A stretch of 48,196 bases of DNA from an uncultured Aquiluna sp. (GTDB taxonomy: Bacteria; Actinomycetota; Actinomycetes; Actinomycetales; Microbacteriaceae), in contig CAZQHT010000003.1 of assembly GCA_964593635.1 (NCBI GenBank), positions 2,490 to 50,685 on the forward strand. Reading direction: 5' to 3'. The first letter of the stretch is position 1. Every line of letters begins with the position of its first letter. Positions 17,911 to 24,021 of the stretch are shown here, one piece after another. The position numbers and the translations under genes were made by a program. The notes below the pieces were generated by a model, which saw only the letters and a list, made by a program, of their open reading frames with translations, had not been told where the DNA came from and made no database searches.

Positions 17911-17936
17911 GGTGACTGGGGTTCGCCCCAGTCACC
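17911..17936. terminator. Hairpin between convergent heliorhodopsin and LysE genes
   Basis: GGTGACTGGGG-ttcg-CCCCAGTCACC, 11-bp stem with TTCG tetraloop; overlaps the LysE stop codon. Confidence 0.75.
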
Positions 17937-18504
17937 GAAGCGCTATCCATAGCGCAAGCAGGACGAACACAATGCTCAAGACTCGGTTTACCGAGACCTC
18001 GTTTTTGCCAGCCGAAAGCCACTTTCGAAGCGGAACTGTCGCCAGGATGTAGCTCGCTGAGACCAGAGCAAATCCAACCAAAACGATTGCCAGCAAGGCC
18101 CAGAGTTCGGTTTCAGCTGCCACTGCTGGCATCACTGAGAGATAGAAAACAAAGGGCTGCGGATTACTGAATCCGATTGTGAATCCGGTCACAAAATCCC
18201 TGCCAGAAACCTTCGATGCACTTGTCCCGGGCAGCTTGTTCCACAAAACCCAGGCTCGGAAAAGCAAGAACAGAACTCCAAAAACCTGCAGAATCGAAAT
18301 TAGCCAGCTTGCATTTTGAACAGCCGCACTGACTCCAAAGTAGACAATCGTCACCATGGCCAGCTTCGCAACTGTGATTCCAGCCGCAGACCAGATTGCC
18401 GCCACTTTGCTTTCGATTGCCCTTGAAGCAATCAAGAGAGTGTCTGCGCCGGGCGCTAAAGCCGCGGCCATGAAGGCTGTGGCGAAGAGCAAGTAGTCGG
18501 TCAT
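17932..18504 (-). CDS. LysE/RhtB family amino-acid exporter
   Basis: ALAPGADTLL and GFSNPQ (PGP/NPK-like motifs); hydrophobic profile. Confidence 0.8.
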   Translation of the reverse strand: MTDYLLFATAFMAAALAPGADTLLIASRAIESKVAAIWSAAGITVAKLAMVTIVYFGVSAAVQNASWLISILQVFGVLFLLFRAWVLWNKLPGTSASKVSGRDFVTGFTIGFSNPQPFVFYLSVMPAVAAETELWALLAIVLVGFALVSASYILATVPLRKWLSAGKNEVSVNRVLSIVFVLLALWIALR

Positions 18505-18560
18505 GAATCAAATCTAGACCTTGCTGCATCTGCAAAAGATTGAATCGCTAGTCTGTTCCA

Positions 18561-19094
18561 ATGCCCACAATCTTCTACGGAGCGATCTCGCTCGATGGAT
18601 TTATCGCTGGTCCTGAGGGCTCAATGGATTGGGCCGAAAAGCACCTCGCCAGCGGCGAGGACTACGGCTATGTCGAGTTGGTTTCGTCCTGCTCTGCAAT
18701 GCTGATCGGCAGAAAGACCTTTGAGTTTGAGCTGGCAGCAGCACCAGAGATGGATCGGGTTCTCCCAACATATGTCTTGACCGAGCAGCCACTTCGTTTC
18801 GACGGTGCTGCGTTGTCTGGAGTTCACTTCACTTCGGGGGATCTTCGCGAGGTGGTTCAACTGATTAAGGACAAGCACCCCGGAGACATATTTATTGGTG
18901 GGGGAGCAGAACTAGTTGATGGCCTAATGGTGATGGGTCTACTTGATGAGCTGCGGTTGTTTGTAACCCCAGACATCCTGGGCAGTGGAGTGCGACTTTT
19001 CAAAGGCTCAAAGATCAAGAGCACACTCAGGCTTCACTCCAGCAAACAGTTTGACTCCGGGTTGGTCGAGCTCAGGTATTTGCTCGAAAACTGA
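18561..19094 (+). CDS. Dihydrofolate reductase-like / RibD C-terminal domain protein
   Basis: AISLDGFIAGP, IGRKTF, IGGGAEL, LLDELRLFVTP.ILGSG.RLF, SGLVELRY. Confidence 0.85.
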   Translation: MPTIFYGAISLDGFIAGPEGSMDWAEKHLASGEDYGYVELVSSCSAMLIGRKTFEFELAAAPEMDRVLPTYVLTEQPLRFDGAALSGVHFTSGDLREVVQLIKDKHPGDIFIGGGAELVDGLMVMGLLDELRLFVTPDILGSGVRLFKGSKIKSTLRLHSSKQFDSGLVELRYLLEN

Positions 19095-19104
19095 GTTTTG
19101 TGTT

Positions 19105-19133
19105 TTGAACTGTTGAGTTTTCTTCGGTAAACT
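19105..19133 (+). promoter_or_regulatory. SigA-type promoter for the Cys-rich microprotein
   Basis: TTGAAC (19105-19110), 17-bp spacer, TAAACT (19128-19133). Confidence 0.6.
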
Positions 19134-19140
19134 TTTCTTT

Positions 19141-19156
19141 ATACCCCTAGGGGTAT
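19141..19156. promoter_or_regulatory. CsoR/CstR-type operator (copy 1)
   Basis: Perfect palindrome ATACCCCTAGGGGTAT at the predicted +1. Matches the TAC-(C/G tract)-GTA architecture of CsoR-family operators and the copy at 23617. Confidence 0.8.
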
Positions 19157-19175
19157 GCAACGAAAGGGAAAACTT

Positions 19176-19298
19176 ATGTGCTCACCAGTTATGTGCTACG
19201 ACTGCTCAAAGCCAACCTGGCAGGGATGTGGACAACACATTGAAGAGGCTCTCGACGGCATTGCCGAGAGCGACCGTTGCCAGTGCCCAAGGGACTAA
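19176..19298 (+). CDS. 40-aa Cys/His-rich microprotein (not in the ORF track)
   Basis: MCSPVMCYDCSKPTWQGCGQHIEEALDGIAESDRCQCPRD*; GAAAGGGA RBS; promoter and operator upstream; fills an otherwise unexplained gap. Confidence 0.8.
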   Translation: MCSPVMCYDCSKPTWQGCGQHIEEALDGIAESDRCQCPRD

Positions 19299-19367
19299 TC
19301 AGCCCTTTTTGTCACTAGACTGGCCCTGTTCCCAACAATCACTGTCGATGAGACGTTAGGTCAGCCA

Positions 19368-20963
19368 TTGTCTAAGCCAGTTGTATTAATTGCCGAAGAA
19401 CTATCCCCGGCCACTCTTGAAGCGCTCGGACCAGATTTCGAGATTCGCAACGTTGATGGCGCAGACCGCGCAGCGCTCTTGCCTGCCCTCGCGGAGGCCA
19501 ACGCTGTTCTGATTCGTTCCGCCACCAAGATGGACGAAGAGGCGATCGCAGCAGCCCCCAAGCTCAAGGTGATTGCTCGCGCTGGAGTTGGTCTAGACAA
19601 CGTCGACATCAAGGCAGCCACTAATGCTGGCGTGATGGTTGTAAACGCTCCGACTTCAAACATCATTTCTGCGGCTGAGCTAGCAATCGCTCAGATCATG
19701 GGCCTAGCCCGCCACATCCCTGACGCCAACGCTTCGCTGAAGGCAGGGGAGTGGAAGCGCAACAAGTTCACCGGCGTAGAGCTCTACGAGAAGACCATCG
19801 GCATCATCGGCCTAGGTCGCATCGGTACTTTAGTTGCCCAGCGCCTTGCAGGTTTTGGCACCACTCTGATTGGTTTTGATCCTTACGTCACTCAGGCTCG
19901 CGCCGAGCAGATGGGAGTCGAACTAGTTTCGATTGAGGAGCTGATGAAGCGAAGCGACTTCATCACCATCCACATCCCAAAGACTCCCGAGACCACGGGC
20001 ATGATTTCAACCCCGCAGTTCGCCATGGCAAAGCCAAACCTTCGAATCGTGAACTGCTCGCGCGGCGGCATTATCGACGAGGCTGCACTCTTTACCGCTT
20101 TGTCCTCCGGTCAGATTGCTGGTGCAGGACTAGACGTGTTCGTGAACGAGCCTCCAAAGGATTCACCGCTTCTAACCCTGCCCAACATTTTGGTTACCCC
20201 TCACTTGGGAGCATCTACCGATGAGGCTCAGGAGAAGGCGGGTATTTCGGTTGCTCGCTCTGTTCGACTCGCCCTAGCTGGTGACTTGGTTCCTGATGCA
20301 GTGAACGTTGCCGGAGGAGTTATTGACTCATCTGTGAAGCCAGGCATTCCGCTGGCCGAGAAGCTCGGCCAGATTGTTGCAGGACTCGCCCACACCTCGA
20401 TCGTCTCGGTTGAGTTTGAGGCACGCGGCGAGATCGCAGCTCACGATGTCACAGTCTTGAAGCTTGCAGCGCTCAAGGGCCTCTTCCAGACCATGGTCAC
20501 TGAGCAGGTTTCATACGTAAATGCTCCACTGATGGCAGAGCAGCGCGGTGTCGAAGTTCGCCTCACTCAGGACACCGTAAGCGATGAGTACCGCAACGTC
20601 ACCACGCTGAAGGCTGTGCTCTCCGATGGCACCACAGTTTCCGCTGGTGGAACGGTGATTGGTCCAAAGCACCACCAGAAGGTTGTTTCAATCAACGGTT
20701 ACGACGTTGAGCTTTCAATGGCCGAGCACATGGTCGTCATGGTTTACCAGGACCGCCCAGGAATCGTTGCAATCTATGGCAAGGCTTTTGCAGAGGCAGG
20801 CATCAACATCGCAGCTATGACTATTGCCCGCCAGCAAAAGGGCGGCAAGGCACTCAGCGTCATCACTGTTGACTCACCAGTTGAGGCAAAGATTCTCGAC
20901 AAGCTCAAGGGTGAGATCTCGGCTGACGCGATGCGCTCAATTTCGATTTCCGACGAGTACTAA
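19368..20963 (+). CDS. serA: D-3-phosphoglycerate dehydrogenase
   Basis: [34 protein letters not shown] and a C-terminal ACT domain (DRPG). Confidence 0.96.
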
Positions 20964-21008: not shown

Positions 21009-22649
21009 CTAGCCAACTCTGGCTTTGGCATCCATCGCCATCTTCCAAGTCGCATAGCCGCCGTCAAGGTTTCGAACGCTGATGCCGTGACTGCGCAGAA
21101 TCTGGGTGGCGGTGTGACCGCGCTGACCCACTGCGCAGTGAACAATCACGTCTTTACCCTTTAGTTCGTTGATGTGTTCACGGAGCTCATCAACCGGAAT
21201 GAGAGTTGCGCCTGGGATGCTTCCAGCCAGGTTTTCTTCCTTGGTTCGAACATCGATCACAAGGGCTCCTGCAGCCTGAGCTGCCGCTAGCTCGTGCCAC
21301 TGAATGGTTGGGGTCTTACCCTCAATTACGTTGTTGCCGACATAACCAGTTTGATTGATTGCATCCTTGGCTGAGCCAAAAGCTGGTGCGTAGGCAAGCT
21401 CTAGGTTCATCAGGTCATCGATTGTTAGTCCTGCATAAATGGCAGTTGCGATTACGTCGATTCGCTTGTCCACTCCATCGCGGCCAATTCCCTGAGCACC
21501 CAGAATCTTTCCGGTTTCTGGGTCAAACAAGACCTTGAGGCTGAGTCTTTCAGCACCTGGGTAATAGCCAGCGTGACTTGATGGGTGCAGGTGGATTACC
21601 TGGTGAGGTATGCCCATGCGCTTAGCTAGACCTTCAGTCAGTCCAGTCAGCGCGGCTGCCATGCCGTAGGCACCGATGATTCCGGTGCCGATTGACTTGC
21701 GGGCAACTACCTTTTCACCTGCCACAACATCTGCCACTAGGCGGCCGTGGCGATTAGCCAAGTTGGCAAGCCAAATCATCTGATTCTCACCAGTGAGCGC
21801 GCTTACCTTTTCGGCTGCATCTCCGACTGCATAGATATCTTTGTTCGAAGTGCGCATTTGGTCATCCACCCAAATGCCTCCTGCTTCACCAATCCTGAGC
21901 CCTGCGTCAACGGCAAGGTGATGGTCGGCCACCACACCAATCGCCGCGACCACAAGGTCTGCAGCAATTACTCGCCCATCCTTTAGCCTCAGAGAGTCGT
22001 TCAAGACTTCTTCAGTCTCTCCTCGGAGCGCAAGCTTGATGCCGTTATTCACCAACTCTGCCTGGAGCGGCTCGATCATTTCCTGGTCAAACTGATTGAG
22101 GATCTGGTCGCCAAGCTGAACGATGGTGGTCTCGATGCCTCTGTGCTGCAGGTTCTCTGCAAGCTCGACTCCAATGAATCCGGCACCAATGATTGCTGCC
22201 GACTTGACCTTCTTGCTGTCGACCAGTTCCTTGATCCGAAGGGCATCAGGCACATCCCGCAGCACATGAGCACGCTCAAGGCCTGGAATTGGAATCATTC
22301 TTGGCTTGGCTCCGGTCGAGAGAATTAGAGAGTCGTAGGACTCGGTGTAGCTCTCGCCTGAAACAAGGTTTTTGACCTCGACTGTTTTGGAAGCTGGGTT
22401 GATTTTGGTAACTCGGTTGTTGACTCGGACATCGAGGTTGAAGCGAGCATGAAGCGACTCAGGAGTTTGTAGCAGCAGAGAACGCTTCTCAGGAATTACT
22501 TCACCCACGTGATACGGCAGACCACAGTTTGCATAGGAAACGTGAGGACCTTGCTCGAAGATGATTATTTCCGCATCTTCCTTTAGCCTGCGCAACCTGG
22601 TAGCAGCAGACATTCCGCCTGCAACGCCACCAACAATTAGAACCTTCAC
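21009..22649 (-). CDS. CoA-disulfide/persulfide reductase with C-terminal rhodanese domain (CoADR-RHD)
   Basis: GGVAGGMSAA (FAD), SYANCGLPY (redox Cys), GAGFIG, HAGYYPG, LELAYAP and the rhodanese loop CAVGQRG. Confidence 0.9.
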   Translation of the reverse strand: MKVLIVGGVAGGMSAATRLRRLKEDAEIIIFEQGPHVSYANCGLPYHVGEVIPEKRSLLLQTPESLHARFNLDVRVNNRVTKINPASKTVEVKNLVSGESYTESYDSLILSTGAKPRMIPIPGLERAHVLRDVPDALRIKELVDSKKVKSAAIIGAGFIGVELAENLQHRGIETTIVQLGDQILNQFDQEMIEPLQAELVNNGIKLALRGETEEVLNDSLRLKDGRVIAADLVVAAIGVVADHHLAVDAGLRIGEAGGIWVDDQMRTSNKDIYAVGDAAEKVSALTGENQMIWLANLANRHGRLVADVVAGEKVVARKSIGTGIIGAYGMAAALTGLTEGLAKRMGIPHQVIHLHPSSHAGYYPGAERLSLKVLFDPETGKILGAQGIGRDGVDKRIDVIATAIYAGLTIDDLMNLELAYAPAFGSAKDAINQTGYVGNNVIEGKTPTIQWHELAAAQAAGALVIDVRTKEENLAGSIPGATLIPVDELREHINELKGKDVIVHCAVGQRGHTATQILRSHGISVRNLDGGYATWKMAMDAKARVG

Positions 22650-22981
22650 TACCTGACGACCCTCATTCCAGAGCGCTGCCAGTTGGACATGCCGCCGCTA
22701 ACGTTTGTGACCTTGTAGCCGGCGCGAGCAAGGATTCCAGCGGCTTGAGCAGAGCGCATTCCCGACTGGCAAATAACCAGAATCTCGCGCTCCTTAGGAA
22801 TCTCGTGAAGTCTTGACTCAAGTGAGCCCAGTGAAATCAGCTTCGCTCCAGGAGCGTGGCCGCCGCGGTACTCGCTGCTCTCGCGAACATCGATCAGCGT
22901 CGCACCAGCATCCTGAGCTGCCTTGGCTTGCTCAGGGGAAACGGTTGCGTACTTCTTCTTTAGAAAATCAAAAAGGCCCAT
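22649..22981 (-). CDS. Single-domain rhodanese (sulfurtransferase)
   Basis: LIDVRE, GHAPGA, CQSGMRS, GGMSNW; 1-nt overlap with the CoADR gene. Confidence 0.9.
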   Translation of the reverse strand: MGLFDFLKKKYATVSPEQAKAAQDAGATLIDVRESSEYRGGHAPGAKLISLGSLESRLHEIPKEREILVICQSGMRSAQAAGILARAGYKVTNVSGGMSNWQRSGMRVVR

Positions 22982-23298
22982 TACTTGCTGGCCTCAAATG
23001 ACACAGTCTTTCCAGCACCGATCCAGCTGCCAGTTCCGCCAGCCACAGAGACCACGTCGTAGCCCTGAGCTTCTAGGTAGTTGGCTGCCTTCATTGAGCG
23101 CACGCCACCCTGGCAGATCAACCAAACAGTCTCGCCCTCAGGGATCTCGCTAATCCGATCCGGGACAGTGTTCAGAGGGATGTGGTGAGCGTTCGGAACG
23201 TGACCGTTCTCAAATTCGTCCGCCTCGCGAACGTCAACTACGTGTGCACCGAGAGCGATTGCCTGCTCTAGTTCGTCGATGGTTACTTCTTTAGCCAT
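22981..23298 (-). CDS. Single-domain rhodanese (sulfurtransferase)
   Basis: VVDVRE, GHVPNA, CQGGVRS, GGTGSW. Confidence 0.9.
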   Translation of the reverse strand: MAKEVTIDELEQAIALGAHVVDVREADEFENGHVPNAHHIPLNTVPDRISEIPEGETVWLICQGGVRSMKAANYLEAQGYDVVSVAGGTGSWIGAGKTVSFEASK

Positions 23299-23318: not shown

Positions 23319-23576
23319 TTAGCTGAGGGATAAAAATGCTTTTTCAAGTTTTGCTCTGTCGGCTTTGCCTTCGGCATCGTTGCCACAGGTGGCCATGCCG
23401 CTTGCGATCAGTGAGAAGGCAGCGCGGGAGACAGCCGCCTGGGCTGCCGCAAGCTGAGTGAGCACATCGGCACAATCTCTGCCCTCTTCAAGCATCTTGA
23501 TGATGCCTCCGAGCTGACCCTGGGCGCGGGACAGGCGCTTTTTTACCGAATCCAGATCTTCCTGAGGAATATCCAA
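23319..23576 (-). CDS. CsoR/RcnR-family repressor, CstR-like
   Basis: RLSRAQGQLGGIIKMLEEGRDC.DVLTQLAA; second Cys in ASGMATC, with Gly at the position of the Cu-ligand His. Confidence 0.88.
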   Translation of the reverse strand: MDIPQEDLDSVKKRLSRAQGQLGGIIKMLEEGRDCADVLTQLAAAQAAVSRAAFSLIASGMATCGNDAEGKADRAKLEKAFLSLS

Positions 23577-23616: not shown

Positions 23617-23632
23617 ATACCCTAGGGGGTAT
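23617..23632. promoter_or_regulatory. CsoR/CstR-type operator (copy 2) in the divergent promoter region
   Basis: ATACCCTAGGGGGTAT. Contains the rightward -10 TACCCT (17 bp after TTGACG at 23595-23600) and lies just upstream of the leftward -10 TAGAGT (23607-23612). Confidence 0.85.
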
Positions 23633-23649: not shown

Positions 23650-24021
23650 ATGAAGTTTCTAAAGTTTGTAGTTGCAGCCTTGATCGCTGTGTTCGCCACC
23701 ACCTCACTGGCCGCTTGCTCATCAGAGCCGACCGTTGACGTCTCTGCCTATGCAGCCGTAATCGATGTTCGCACTCCAGAGGAGTGGAATGAGGGTCGCC
23801 TTGAAGGCGCTGTTCGCATGGGCATCGCAGATGCTGACTTCACCGCGCAGCTAGCAACCCTTGACCCAAGCAAGGACTACTACATCTACTGCCGCAGTGG
23901 AAACCGCGCCGGCCAGGCGATTGACTTCATGCGCCAGAACGGCTTCACCGGAGAGCTTGTAAACGGCGGTTCAGTGGCAAATGCAGCGAGCCAAACTGGA
24001 CTCGCTGTCATCACCAAATAG
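23650..24021 (+). CDS. Rhodanese-domain lipoprotein
   Basis: Signal peptide with lipobox LAAC; IDVRTPEE and CRSGNRA; GAAAGGA RBS. Confidence 0.88.
   Translation: MKFLKFVVAALIAVFATTSLAACSSEPTVDVSAYAAVIDVRTPEEWNEGRLEGAVRMGIADADFTAQLATLDPSKDYYIYCRSGNRAGQAIDFMRQNGFTGELVNGGSVANAASQTGLAVITK

Follow-up and report, generated by a model that had tools for sequence, protein, structure and literature searches.

An unannotated Cys/His-rich microprotein gene as a credible new target of a persulfide regulon in Aquiluna

The microprotein gene

At positions 19176–19298 on the forward strand of the window, the 48,196-nucleotide stretch of an uncultured Aquiluna sp. genome analysed here, is a gene for a 40-residue microprotein, the short, CxC-ending form of an unnamed family. 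The open reading frame begins with an ATG at 19176 and ends with a TAA at 19296–19298; its product has six cysteines and one histidine, and its key residues are C2, C7, C10, W15, G17, C18, G19, H21, C35 and C37. The first-pass annotation had described a Cys/His-rich frame of this length and Cys spacing, and its coordinates and counts are all correct. A ribosome-binding site, GAAAGGGA (19162–19169, forward strand), lies 6 nt before the ATG. An alternative in-frame ATG at 19155, the start taken by the ORF finder, is located inside the operator described below and would give 47 residues; the start at 19176 is preferred because it is supported by both the homologues and the ribosome-binding site.

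Distinct homologous genes, 162 in all, were recovered with their DNA using W-x-G-C-G-x-H as the detection pattern, so that invariance of this motif among them is by construction. Outside the motif, a start codon directly before Cys2 and both Cys7 and Cys10 are found in 162 of 162 genes and Cys35 in 161 (one is truncated), while 120 genes have Cys and 41 have His as the last ligand. An RBS-like sequence precedes 140 of the 162. Across 160 homologues, differences from the window gene at codon positions 1, 2 and 3 number 1,832, 1,383 and 3,096, and synonymous variation is seen at Cys and His codons, a combination that constitutes a coding signature. With matches to the peptide (P0001) in 84 of the 201 genomes of the taxonomic family, the expectation that homologues would exist and keep their cysteines holds, and the frame is a real, conserved and previously unannotated gene. 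Aquiluna MAGs, with 78–90% peptide identity, provide the closest named loci that share the gene order, which makes a freshwater Microbacteriaceae genome the probable source of the window.

Operator and promoter

Upstream of the gene, at 19141–19156, is the perfect 16-bp palindrome ATACCCCTAGGGGTAT, which has the form ATACC-N6-GGTAT (TACCC-N4-GGGTA, or N4) and is a candidate site for a sulfur-type CsoR/CstR repressor. A second 16-bp operator, recognized by sequence match at 23617–23632, lies in the repressor/rhodanese-lipoprotein divergon and, as originally noted, differs from the first only in central bases, three of which are changed. Exact ATACC-N6-GGTAT occurs twice in the window (100 shuffles give a mean of 0.37 matches with up to one mismatch), and the same two sites are the only exact ones in the 1,097,627-base assembly, where 0.23 are expected. 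The assembly contains 41 perfect 16-bp palindromes, so such a palindrome is not unusual in itself; the weight lies in the identity and position of the motif.

An N4 operator is present upstream of 61 of the 162 homologous genes and is kept across classes of the phylum; it has the same consensus as the ScCsoR site discussed below, in support of the initial assignment to a CsoR-family repressor. The final bases of the operator, GGGTATG, supply the peptide start codon in seven loci (L147, L148, L151, L152, L154, L160 and L161) that belong to other classes of the phylum, suggesting a leaderless or operator-overlapped start there. Two of six close relatives (L034 and L037) have no operator at the syntenic position. 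Complete genomes have few operators: those at peptide genes and the divergon, and those at a rhodanese lipoprotein gene and at the gene for one small membrane protein; in G011, one of three 99%-complete genomes of the genus, the only two exact operators are those of the peptide promoter and the divergon. Among the dispersed targets are a rhodanese lipoprotein gene (L174:1533–1895, forward strand) and the gene for the small membrane protein (L175:1155–1448, reverse strand), whose product resembles DUF2892/YgaP by eye and has no Pfam match at 1e-5.

A weak candidate promoter, TTGAAC-N17-TAAACT at 19105–19133 of the forward strand (hexamers at 19105–19110 and 19128–19133, 17-nt spacer), may serve the gene. 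It has 8 of 12 consensus bases, falls below the cut-off of a promoter scan that returned no promoter-like site within 18900–19600, and is not kept in close relatives. The −10 hexamer overlaps the 3′ end of the operator in 36 of 62 homologous operators, an arrangement that is impossible in the window. All elements of the proposed complete expression unit lie at their assigned places, and the palindrome, ribosome-binding site and reading frame stand, but the promoter is weak and not conserved, and the exact promoter of the microprotein gene is doubtful.

The repressor and its sulfur-gene divergon

Encoded on the reverse strand at 23319–23576 is a CsoR-family repressor (PF02583) of the x-C-x-C type, with Cys35, Gly60 and Cys64. 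Next to it on the same strand are two single-domain rhodaneses (22649–22981 and 22981–23298; PF00581 over cut-off) with the active-site loops CQSGMRS and CQGGVRS, and a fusion of CoA-disulfide/persulfide reductase with rhodanese (CoADR-RHD, CoAPR-like; 21009–22649) that matches Pfam Pyr_redox_2, Pyr_redox_dim and Rhodanese and has TIGR03385 as its best NCBIfam family, below its cut-off. Divergently transcribed on the forward strand at 23650–24021 is a further rhodanese-domain protein (PF00581) with a lipoprotein-like N terminus, whose homologue in genome G070 sits behind a separate N4 operator. Persulfide dioxygenase (PDO), TauE and SQR have no match in this assembly, which has CoADR-RHD. The candidate regulon thus pairs an x-C-x-C repressor with three rhodaneses and CoADR-RHD as co-targets.

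The position of the copper-ligand His is Gly in the window repressor, and the His is likewise missing from 31 of 31 CsoR genes found beside peptide genes, which have Gly, Ser or Ala there. The gene at 23319–23576 is the only CsoR-family gene found in the 74%-complete assembly, and each of three 99%-complete genomes of the genus has one CsoR-family gene, of the sulfur type. Because no other such gene was found in the assembly or in these three genomes, the local repressor is taken as the probable controller of the peptide gene from 4.5 kb away, as first suggested.

ScCsoR of Streptomyces coelicolor is reported to bind ATACCn6GGTAT, at a site mapped by EMSA that has the same form as the window operator, and to be released by polysulfide (PMC7533328). 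The x-C-x-C repressors of actinomycetes make up cluster 3, a group of candidate persulfide sensors (bioRxiv 2021.07.25.453692; PMC11672702). By its motif, phylum, operator and neighbours, the window repressor is a candidate member of this cluster-3/ScCsoR type. The ScCsoR (SCO0620) circuit (PMC7533328; SSN cluster 3, bioRxiv 10.1101/2021.07.25.453692, published as PMC8643695) shares with the window the operator ATACC-n6-GGTAT, a two-Cys repressor without the copper-ligand His, and rhodanese targets, and loci homologous to the peptide locus also hold MBL-rhodanese and TauE genes. As described in the available portion of these reports, the circuit comprises four genes (repressor, PDO, rhodanese and TauE) and no Cys-rich microprotein, whereas the window has one, together with CoADR-RHD and no match to PDO, TauE or SQR in its assembly. 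The enzyme set of the divergon is that of the cst-like operons of Enterococcus faecalis and Streptococcus mitis (CstR cluster 10), namely RhdA, RhdB and CoA persulfide reductase. The available description of those operons mentions no such peptide; unlike the window repressor, their Firmicute repressors are x-C-N-C proteins with a wedge Asn, and the printed S. mitis operator is one base longer than that of the window.

Sulfur-type and copper-type operators

CsoR-family proteins are also described as copper repressors (PMC11672702), and copper operators are reported to be one base longer, TAC-X9-GTA (PMC3902906). The 162 peptide genes carry the 16-bp N4 site in 61 cases and the 17-bp N5 site in none. 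In a copper-type control set, made up of the 20 CsoR loci that score highest beneath the score gap described in the next section, every repressor has the His; 15 of these loci have N5 (TACCC-N5-GGGTA), 0 have N4 and 16 show copA/copZ motifs. N4 is present in 27 and N5 in one of the 77 metagenome loci that form a second set, 3 of 80 without the full motif having been set aside; this lone N5 site lies in a long G run, and near-identical loci have N4. The N4/N5 rule has exceptions, namely the S. mitis CstR site, which reads as 17 bp in the cited preprint (bioRxiv 2021.07.25.453692), and the single N5 site among the metagenome loci, and it is not general outside the phylum. In these actinobacteria, the one-base difference lets copper and sulfur regulons be separated by sequence.

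An x-C-H-C repressor, an N5 operator and a copA/copZ context, the marks of copper CsoR/RicR control, are missing here (CopA is near 1 of 78 peptide loci). With no copper-ligand His, N5 at 0 of 162 genes, co-occurrence with the sulfur-type repressor and genus genomes free of copper-type CsoR, copper control of the microprotein gene appears very unlikely, and the proposed membership in a persulfide-type rather than a copper regulon agrees with these counts and with the co-occurrence that follows.

Co-occurrence and gene neighbourhoods

Among the 201 genomes of the family, 79 have both the peptide and the sulfur-type repressor, 5 the peptide only, 12 the repressor only and 105 neither, the repressor being scored with a profile built from co-located repressors, whose matches show a gap from 82 down to 69 bits. 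The peptide is carried by 4 of the 98 genomes in which the only CsoR types are lower-scoring ones. Within 18 genera mixed for peptide presence, 15 contrasts are concordant, none discordant and 3 tied. P values for this co-occurrence are overstated, because kin are not independent and the profile was made from peptide-linked repressors. Across the phylum, the peptide is present in 26 of 301 genomes, 17 of them with a repressor of at least 82 bits, and 20 of the 37 genomes with such a repressor have no peptide match. These counts were made by hand, with no clean score gap and with 18–22 candidates scored per genome, so that misses are uncertain; the negatives include three genomes flagged as unpublished (G248, G320 and G201).

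A sulfur gene is found within 6 kb on either side in 39 of 78 genome loci, against 1.3% of random windows of the own assembly. The neighbours comprise rhodanese (37 loci), repressor (28), CoADR (24), MBL-fold dioxygenase-like protein (12), TauE (7), SQR-like protein (2) and CopA (1), and a thioredoxin gene is nearby in 10. CoADR-RHD (24) and the persulfide-dioxygenase-like MBL-rhodanese (12) never occur in one peptide locus, which argues that the peptide has no single enzyme partner. An operator or sulfur gene accompanies 44 of 77 metagenome peptide loci, and in all 8 annotated plasmid regions read, of 64 plasmid records, the peptide gene lies among sulfur genes. Scoring of neighbourhoods for csoR, rhodanese and operator, as had been suggested, associates many homologues with sulfur genes. 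In 33 of the 78 loci there is neither operator nor sulfur gene, and the peptide gene often stands behind housekeeping genes; a thirty-fourth was removed from this count as the second gene of an operator-led tandem. Membership of the persulfide regulon, the central claim of the first-pass annotation, is supported for the window and many other loci but does not extend to the whole family, which includes these solo loci as well as eukaryotic and viral members.

In one clade of 10 loci (L013, L015, L028, L031, L039, L090, L108, L224, L240 and L261), an operator-led peptide gene is followed, directly or closely, by a gene for a P1B-type ATPase with a TPCP motif. Several of these loci adjoin an isocitrate dehydrogenase-like gene. 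We take the ATPase to be P1B-5-like; it is possibly a sulfur-regulated metal exporter.

Family size and distribution

The peptide belongs to a large, unnamed family for which no Pfam or NCBIfam entry, structure or paper was found. A single-sequence word search with the peptide returned no candidate; the profile search, by alignment, gave 3,644 clusters at 90% identity, or 1,327 at 50%. No Pfam or NCBIfam family exceeds its cut-off, and weak matches to YyzF/TIGR04129 cover residues 18–29 of the peptide only. A literature search that included the motif strings found nothing on the family, on which supplements and subscription papers may bear. Among the 7,996 candidates scored, 47 longer matches are mis-started or chimeric calls, none recurring. 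Two non-ligand residues are largely kept, K12 in 150 and T14 in 148 of the 162 genes, suggesting a binding surface, which a plain sink would not need. Long forms carry a GFFxRLFG-like tail (44 of 68 by pattern), the amphipathicity of which is 0.46 against 0.43 when shuffled, with 39 of 64 above. Short and long paralogues often stand in tandem in one operon.

Twenty eukaryote-like representatives were picked by eye among the 150 matches listed; eight have eukaryotic names (four chytrids, Dissophora, two oomycetes and a bdelloid rotifer) and the remaining 12 carry no taxon. Four of the eukaryote-like sequences (P0231, P0265, P0321 and P0332) have a Cys four to six residues from the C terminus, which resembles a lipidation signal and possibly parallels the bacterial GFFxRLFG tail. 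Nine viral contigs match the family, one of them with an operator. Homologues without an operator (L181:2001–2117, L184:2001–2117, L177, L178, L180 and L183) occur on giant-virus contigs, one of them beside an NCLDV major capsid gene, and on low-GC phage-like contigs, near thioredoxin or 2OG-Fe(II) oxygenase genes. Because eukaryotic and viral members exist, the basic role of the family need not be specific to sulfur. In a peptide tree of 37 columns, 12 of 74 branches are starred and the label changes about nine times; resolution is too poor for the order of gains and losses to be read.

Predicted fold and metal ligands

AlphaFold2 predicts a β-hairpin (residues 3–6 and 13–16) followed by a helix (residues 22–25), with a pLDDT of 83.4 from 36 sequences and 87.4 from 127. 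A PDB sequence search gave nothing below an E of 0.1, and fold searches with either model, which have little power for 40 residues, gave nothing with E up to 0.001 or Z of at least 2; the weakest fold matches, all non-significant, are CW and PHD zinc fingers.

A metal-binding fold is likely, given the seven conserved positions and the exchange of Cys for His at the last of them; this swap and the constant placement of Cys2 after the start codon suggest a fold with two zinc ions. After removal of the initiator Met, the chain is probably metal-bound, a cross-brace with two Zn being the likeliest arrangement; the ligands are assigned from secondary structure and conservation only. The structural site would comprise Cys7, Cys10, Cys35 and Cys37 (His in longer forms), and an exchangeable site at the open end of the hairpin would comprise Cys2, Cys18 and His21. 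The predicted hairpin register places Cys2 near Cys18 and His21, and Cys7 and Cys10 at the turn, to which the C-terminal pair could return. The free α-amine of Cys2 would join its thiol as a ligand and complete the three-ligand site; metal ligation by an N-terminal amine occurs in HypB and RcnR. Cross-brace and treble-clef zinc fingers (AN1, CW and PHD) share with the peptide a CxxC knuckle, a hairpin and a CxxH at the start of a helix. They show no significant sequence or fold match to it, and a single N-terminal Cys in the peptide replaces their first CxxC pair.

A possible persulfide shuttle and its alternatives

The persulfide regulon is of a known kind, and the microprotein gene is credible as a new target in it. 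Very probably, by analogy with what is reported for ScCsoR, the copper-insensitive repressor encoded at 23319–23576 acts in trans on the 16-bp operator to repress the gene and is released when sulfane sulfur persulfidates its Cys pair, which would turn the gene on together with the rhodaneses and the CoA-persulfide reductase. In the streamlined freshwater actinobacteria, the repressor has just two or three promoters with an operator, that of the peptide gene among them, which would make the peptide a core output of the response.

For the product, the first-pass annotation put forward several roles and chose none of them. The reading we favour, with a probability of about 0.42, is a zinc-thiolate persulfide acceptor and shuttle, a small protein predicted to accept excess sulfane sulfur and pass it on for reduction. 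This reading would explain joint induction with rhodaneses and the indifference to the downstream enzyme, as well as the thioredoxin genes near 10 loci and a function that in eukaryotes and viruses does without the repressor. Its most speculative part is that persulfidation of the exchangeable site might release or loosen Zn, and that the persulfidated peptide might be recycled by thioredoxin or by a CoA/CoADR-RHD route, as reported for mammalian metallothionein-3. Metallothionein-3/GIF, a small Cys-rich Zn protein that binds sulfane sulfur and is recycled by thioredoxin (PMC12618007), serves here as a model without sequence relation; the mammalian protein holds 7 Zn, whereas the peptide has 7 ligands around a folded, Trp-containing core. 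A Zn-persulfide carrier, if the peptide is one, would represent this chemistry in bacteria and give the eukaryotic members a first function.

Under the same regulation, the product could instead be a metallothionein-like buffer for Zn (or Cu) displaced or precipitated in sulfide stress, with no sulfur transfer, which we consider rather unlikely. Seven conserved Cys/His in 40 residues would suit a buffer, as would the TPCP-type ATPase downstream in 10 loci and stand-alone eukaryotic and viral copies with a self-contained role; one of the nearest ESM Atlas clusters bears the automatic name 'Metallothionein family protein', without a Pfam match. There is also a regulatory precedent in MymT of the mycobacterial copper regulon, a small Cys-rich metallothionein that, like the peptide, is under a CsoR-family repressor, RicR. 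RicR, however, is a copper sensor with Cys-His-Cys and an N5 operator, copper operators and CopA are missing from the peptide loci, and the peptide has no MymT family match. Metallothionein families of Pfam and NCBIfam match none of 36 members at E up to 1, the Cys content of 15% is low for a metallothionein, the invariant Trp, hydrophobic core and confident predicted fold do not suit a simple buffer, and the ATPase context is confined to one syntenic clade.

We regard as unlikely a zinc-finger adaptor or redox switch in which Zn is structural and a K12-x-T14-W15 face binds a protein or membrane partner responsive to sulfur stress. The conserved non-ligand residues, the tandem short and long paralogues, the tails of the long forms and the non-significant CW/PHD matches are all compatible with it, but no neighbour other than the repressor is constant, the longer matches include no true fusion, the tail is barely more amphipathic than its shuffled counterpart, and the eukaryotic members argue against the CsoR repressor as a general partner.

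An iron or Fe-S carrier, rubredoxin-like or with a 3Cys-1His cluster, that moves electrons to or from CoADR-RHD or the dioxygenase seems improbable. The CxxC knuckle and Cys/His sets recall such proteins, the peptide gene frequently adjoins a flavoprotein reductase, and some long forms end in WC(D/N/G)G(S/K/R)H, which resembles the CDGSH tail. Set against this, the window form ends in CxC, rubredoxin and CDGSH families give no match at E up to 1, PDB sequence and fold searches found no relative, and the peptide occurs with two unrelated enzymes.

A real gene with a general thiol or oxidative housekeeping role, to which sulfur control is a lineage-specific addition that may be weak here, is quite improbable. 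The 33 solo loci, the repeated label changes on a poorly resolved tree, the eukaryotic and viral copies and the doubtful window promoter would all be explained by it, but the sulfur-type repressor is missing from only 5 of the family's 84 genomes with the peptide, and different classes of the phylum retain the operator, which in seven loci ends on the start codon. Membership in a copper regulon, MymT-like and under a copper-sensing CsoR that the 74%-complete assembly happens to lack, is hardly credible despite the likeness of copper and sulfur operators, given the single sulfur-type gene in each of three 99%-complete genus genomes, the absence of N5 from all 162 genes and the presence of the peptide in just 4 of 98 genomes with only lower-scoring CsoR types.

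Extended to the whole family, the persulfide-shuttle reading becomes tentative and on balance doubtful: a cross-domain family of two-zinc microproteins whose free N-terminal Cys would be a dedicated persulfide acceptor, supplying, in cytosolic and membrane-tethered versions, the missing small-protein component of the sulfane-sulfur response of actinobacteria and, in fungi, oomycetes, rotifers and viruses, a portable reactive-sulfur buffer. The type of regulator is known and the target is new; for a family that exceeds 1,300 clusters, this points to an inducer and a pathway that can be tested.

Flanking genes

About 1.2 kb upstream of the peptide gene is a heliorhodopsin gene (PF18761; 17097–17900, forward strand), and between the two, at 17932–19094, are genes for a LysE-type exporter (reverse strand) and a RibD_C/DHFR-like protein (forward strand). 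Relatives carry ilvC there, which marks this flank as rearranged or variable.

Downstream lies serA, whose co-transcription with the peptide gene as part of the regulon is unsupported. In the window and six relatives, a TAGACT/TAAACT hexamer, recognized by pattern in 6 of these 7 sequences and by eye in the other, is kept some 50 nt ahead of serA and suggests that serA has its own promoter. In the window (19299–19367) the hexamer is TAGACT, and a CGTTAGGT(C/T) motif conserved in relatives precedes the TTG start of serA; the two are likely to be the promoter and leader of this gene.
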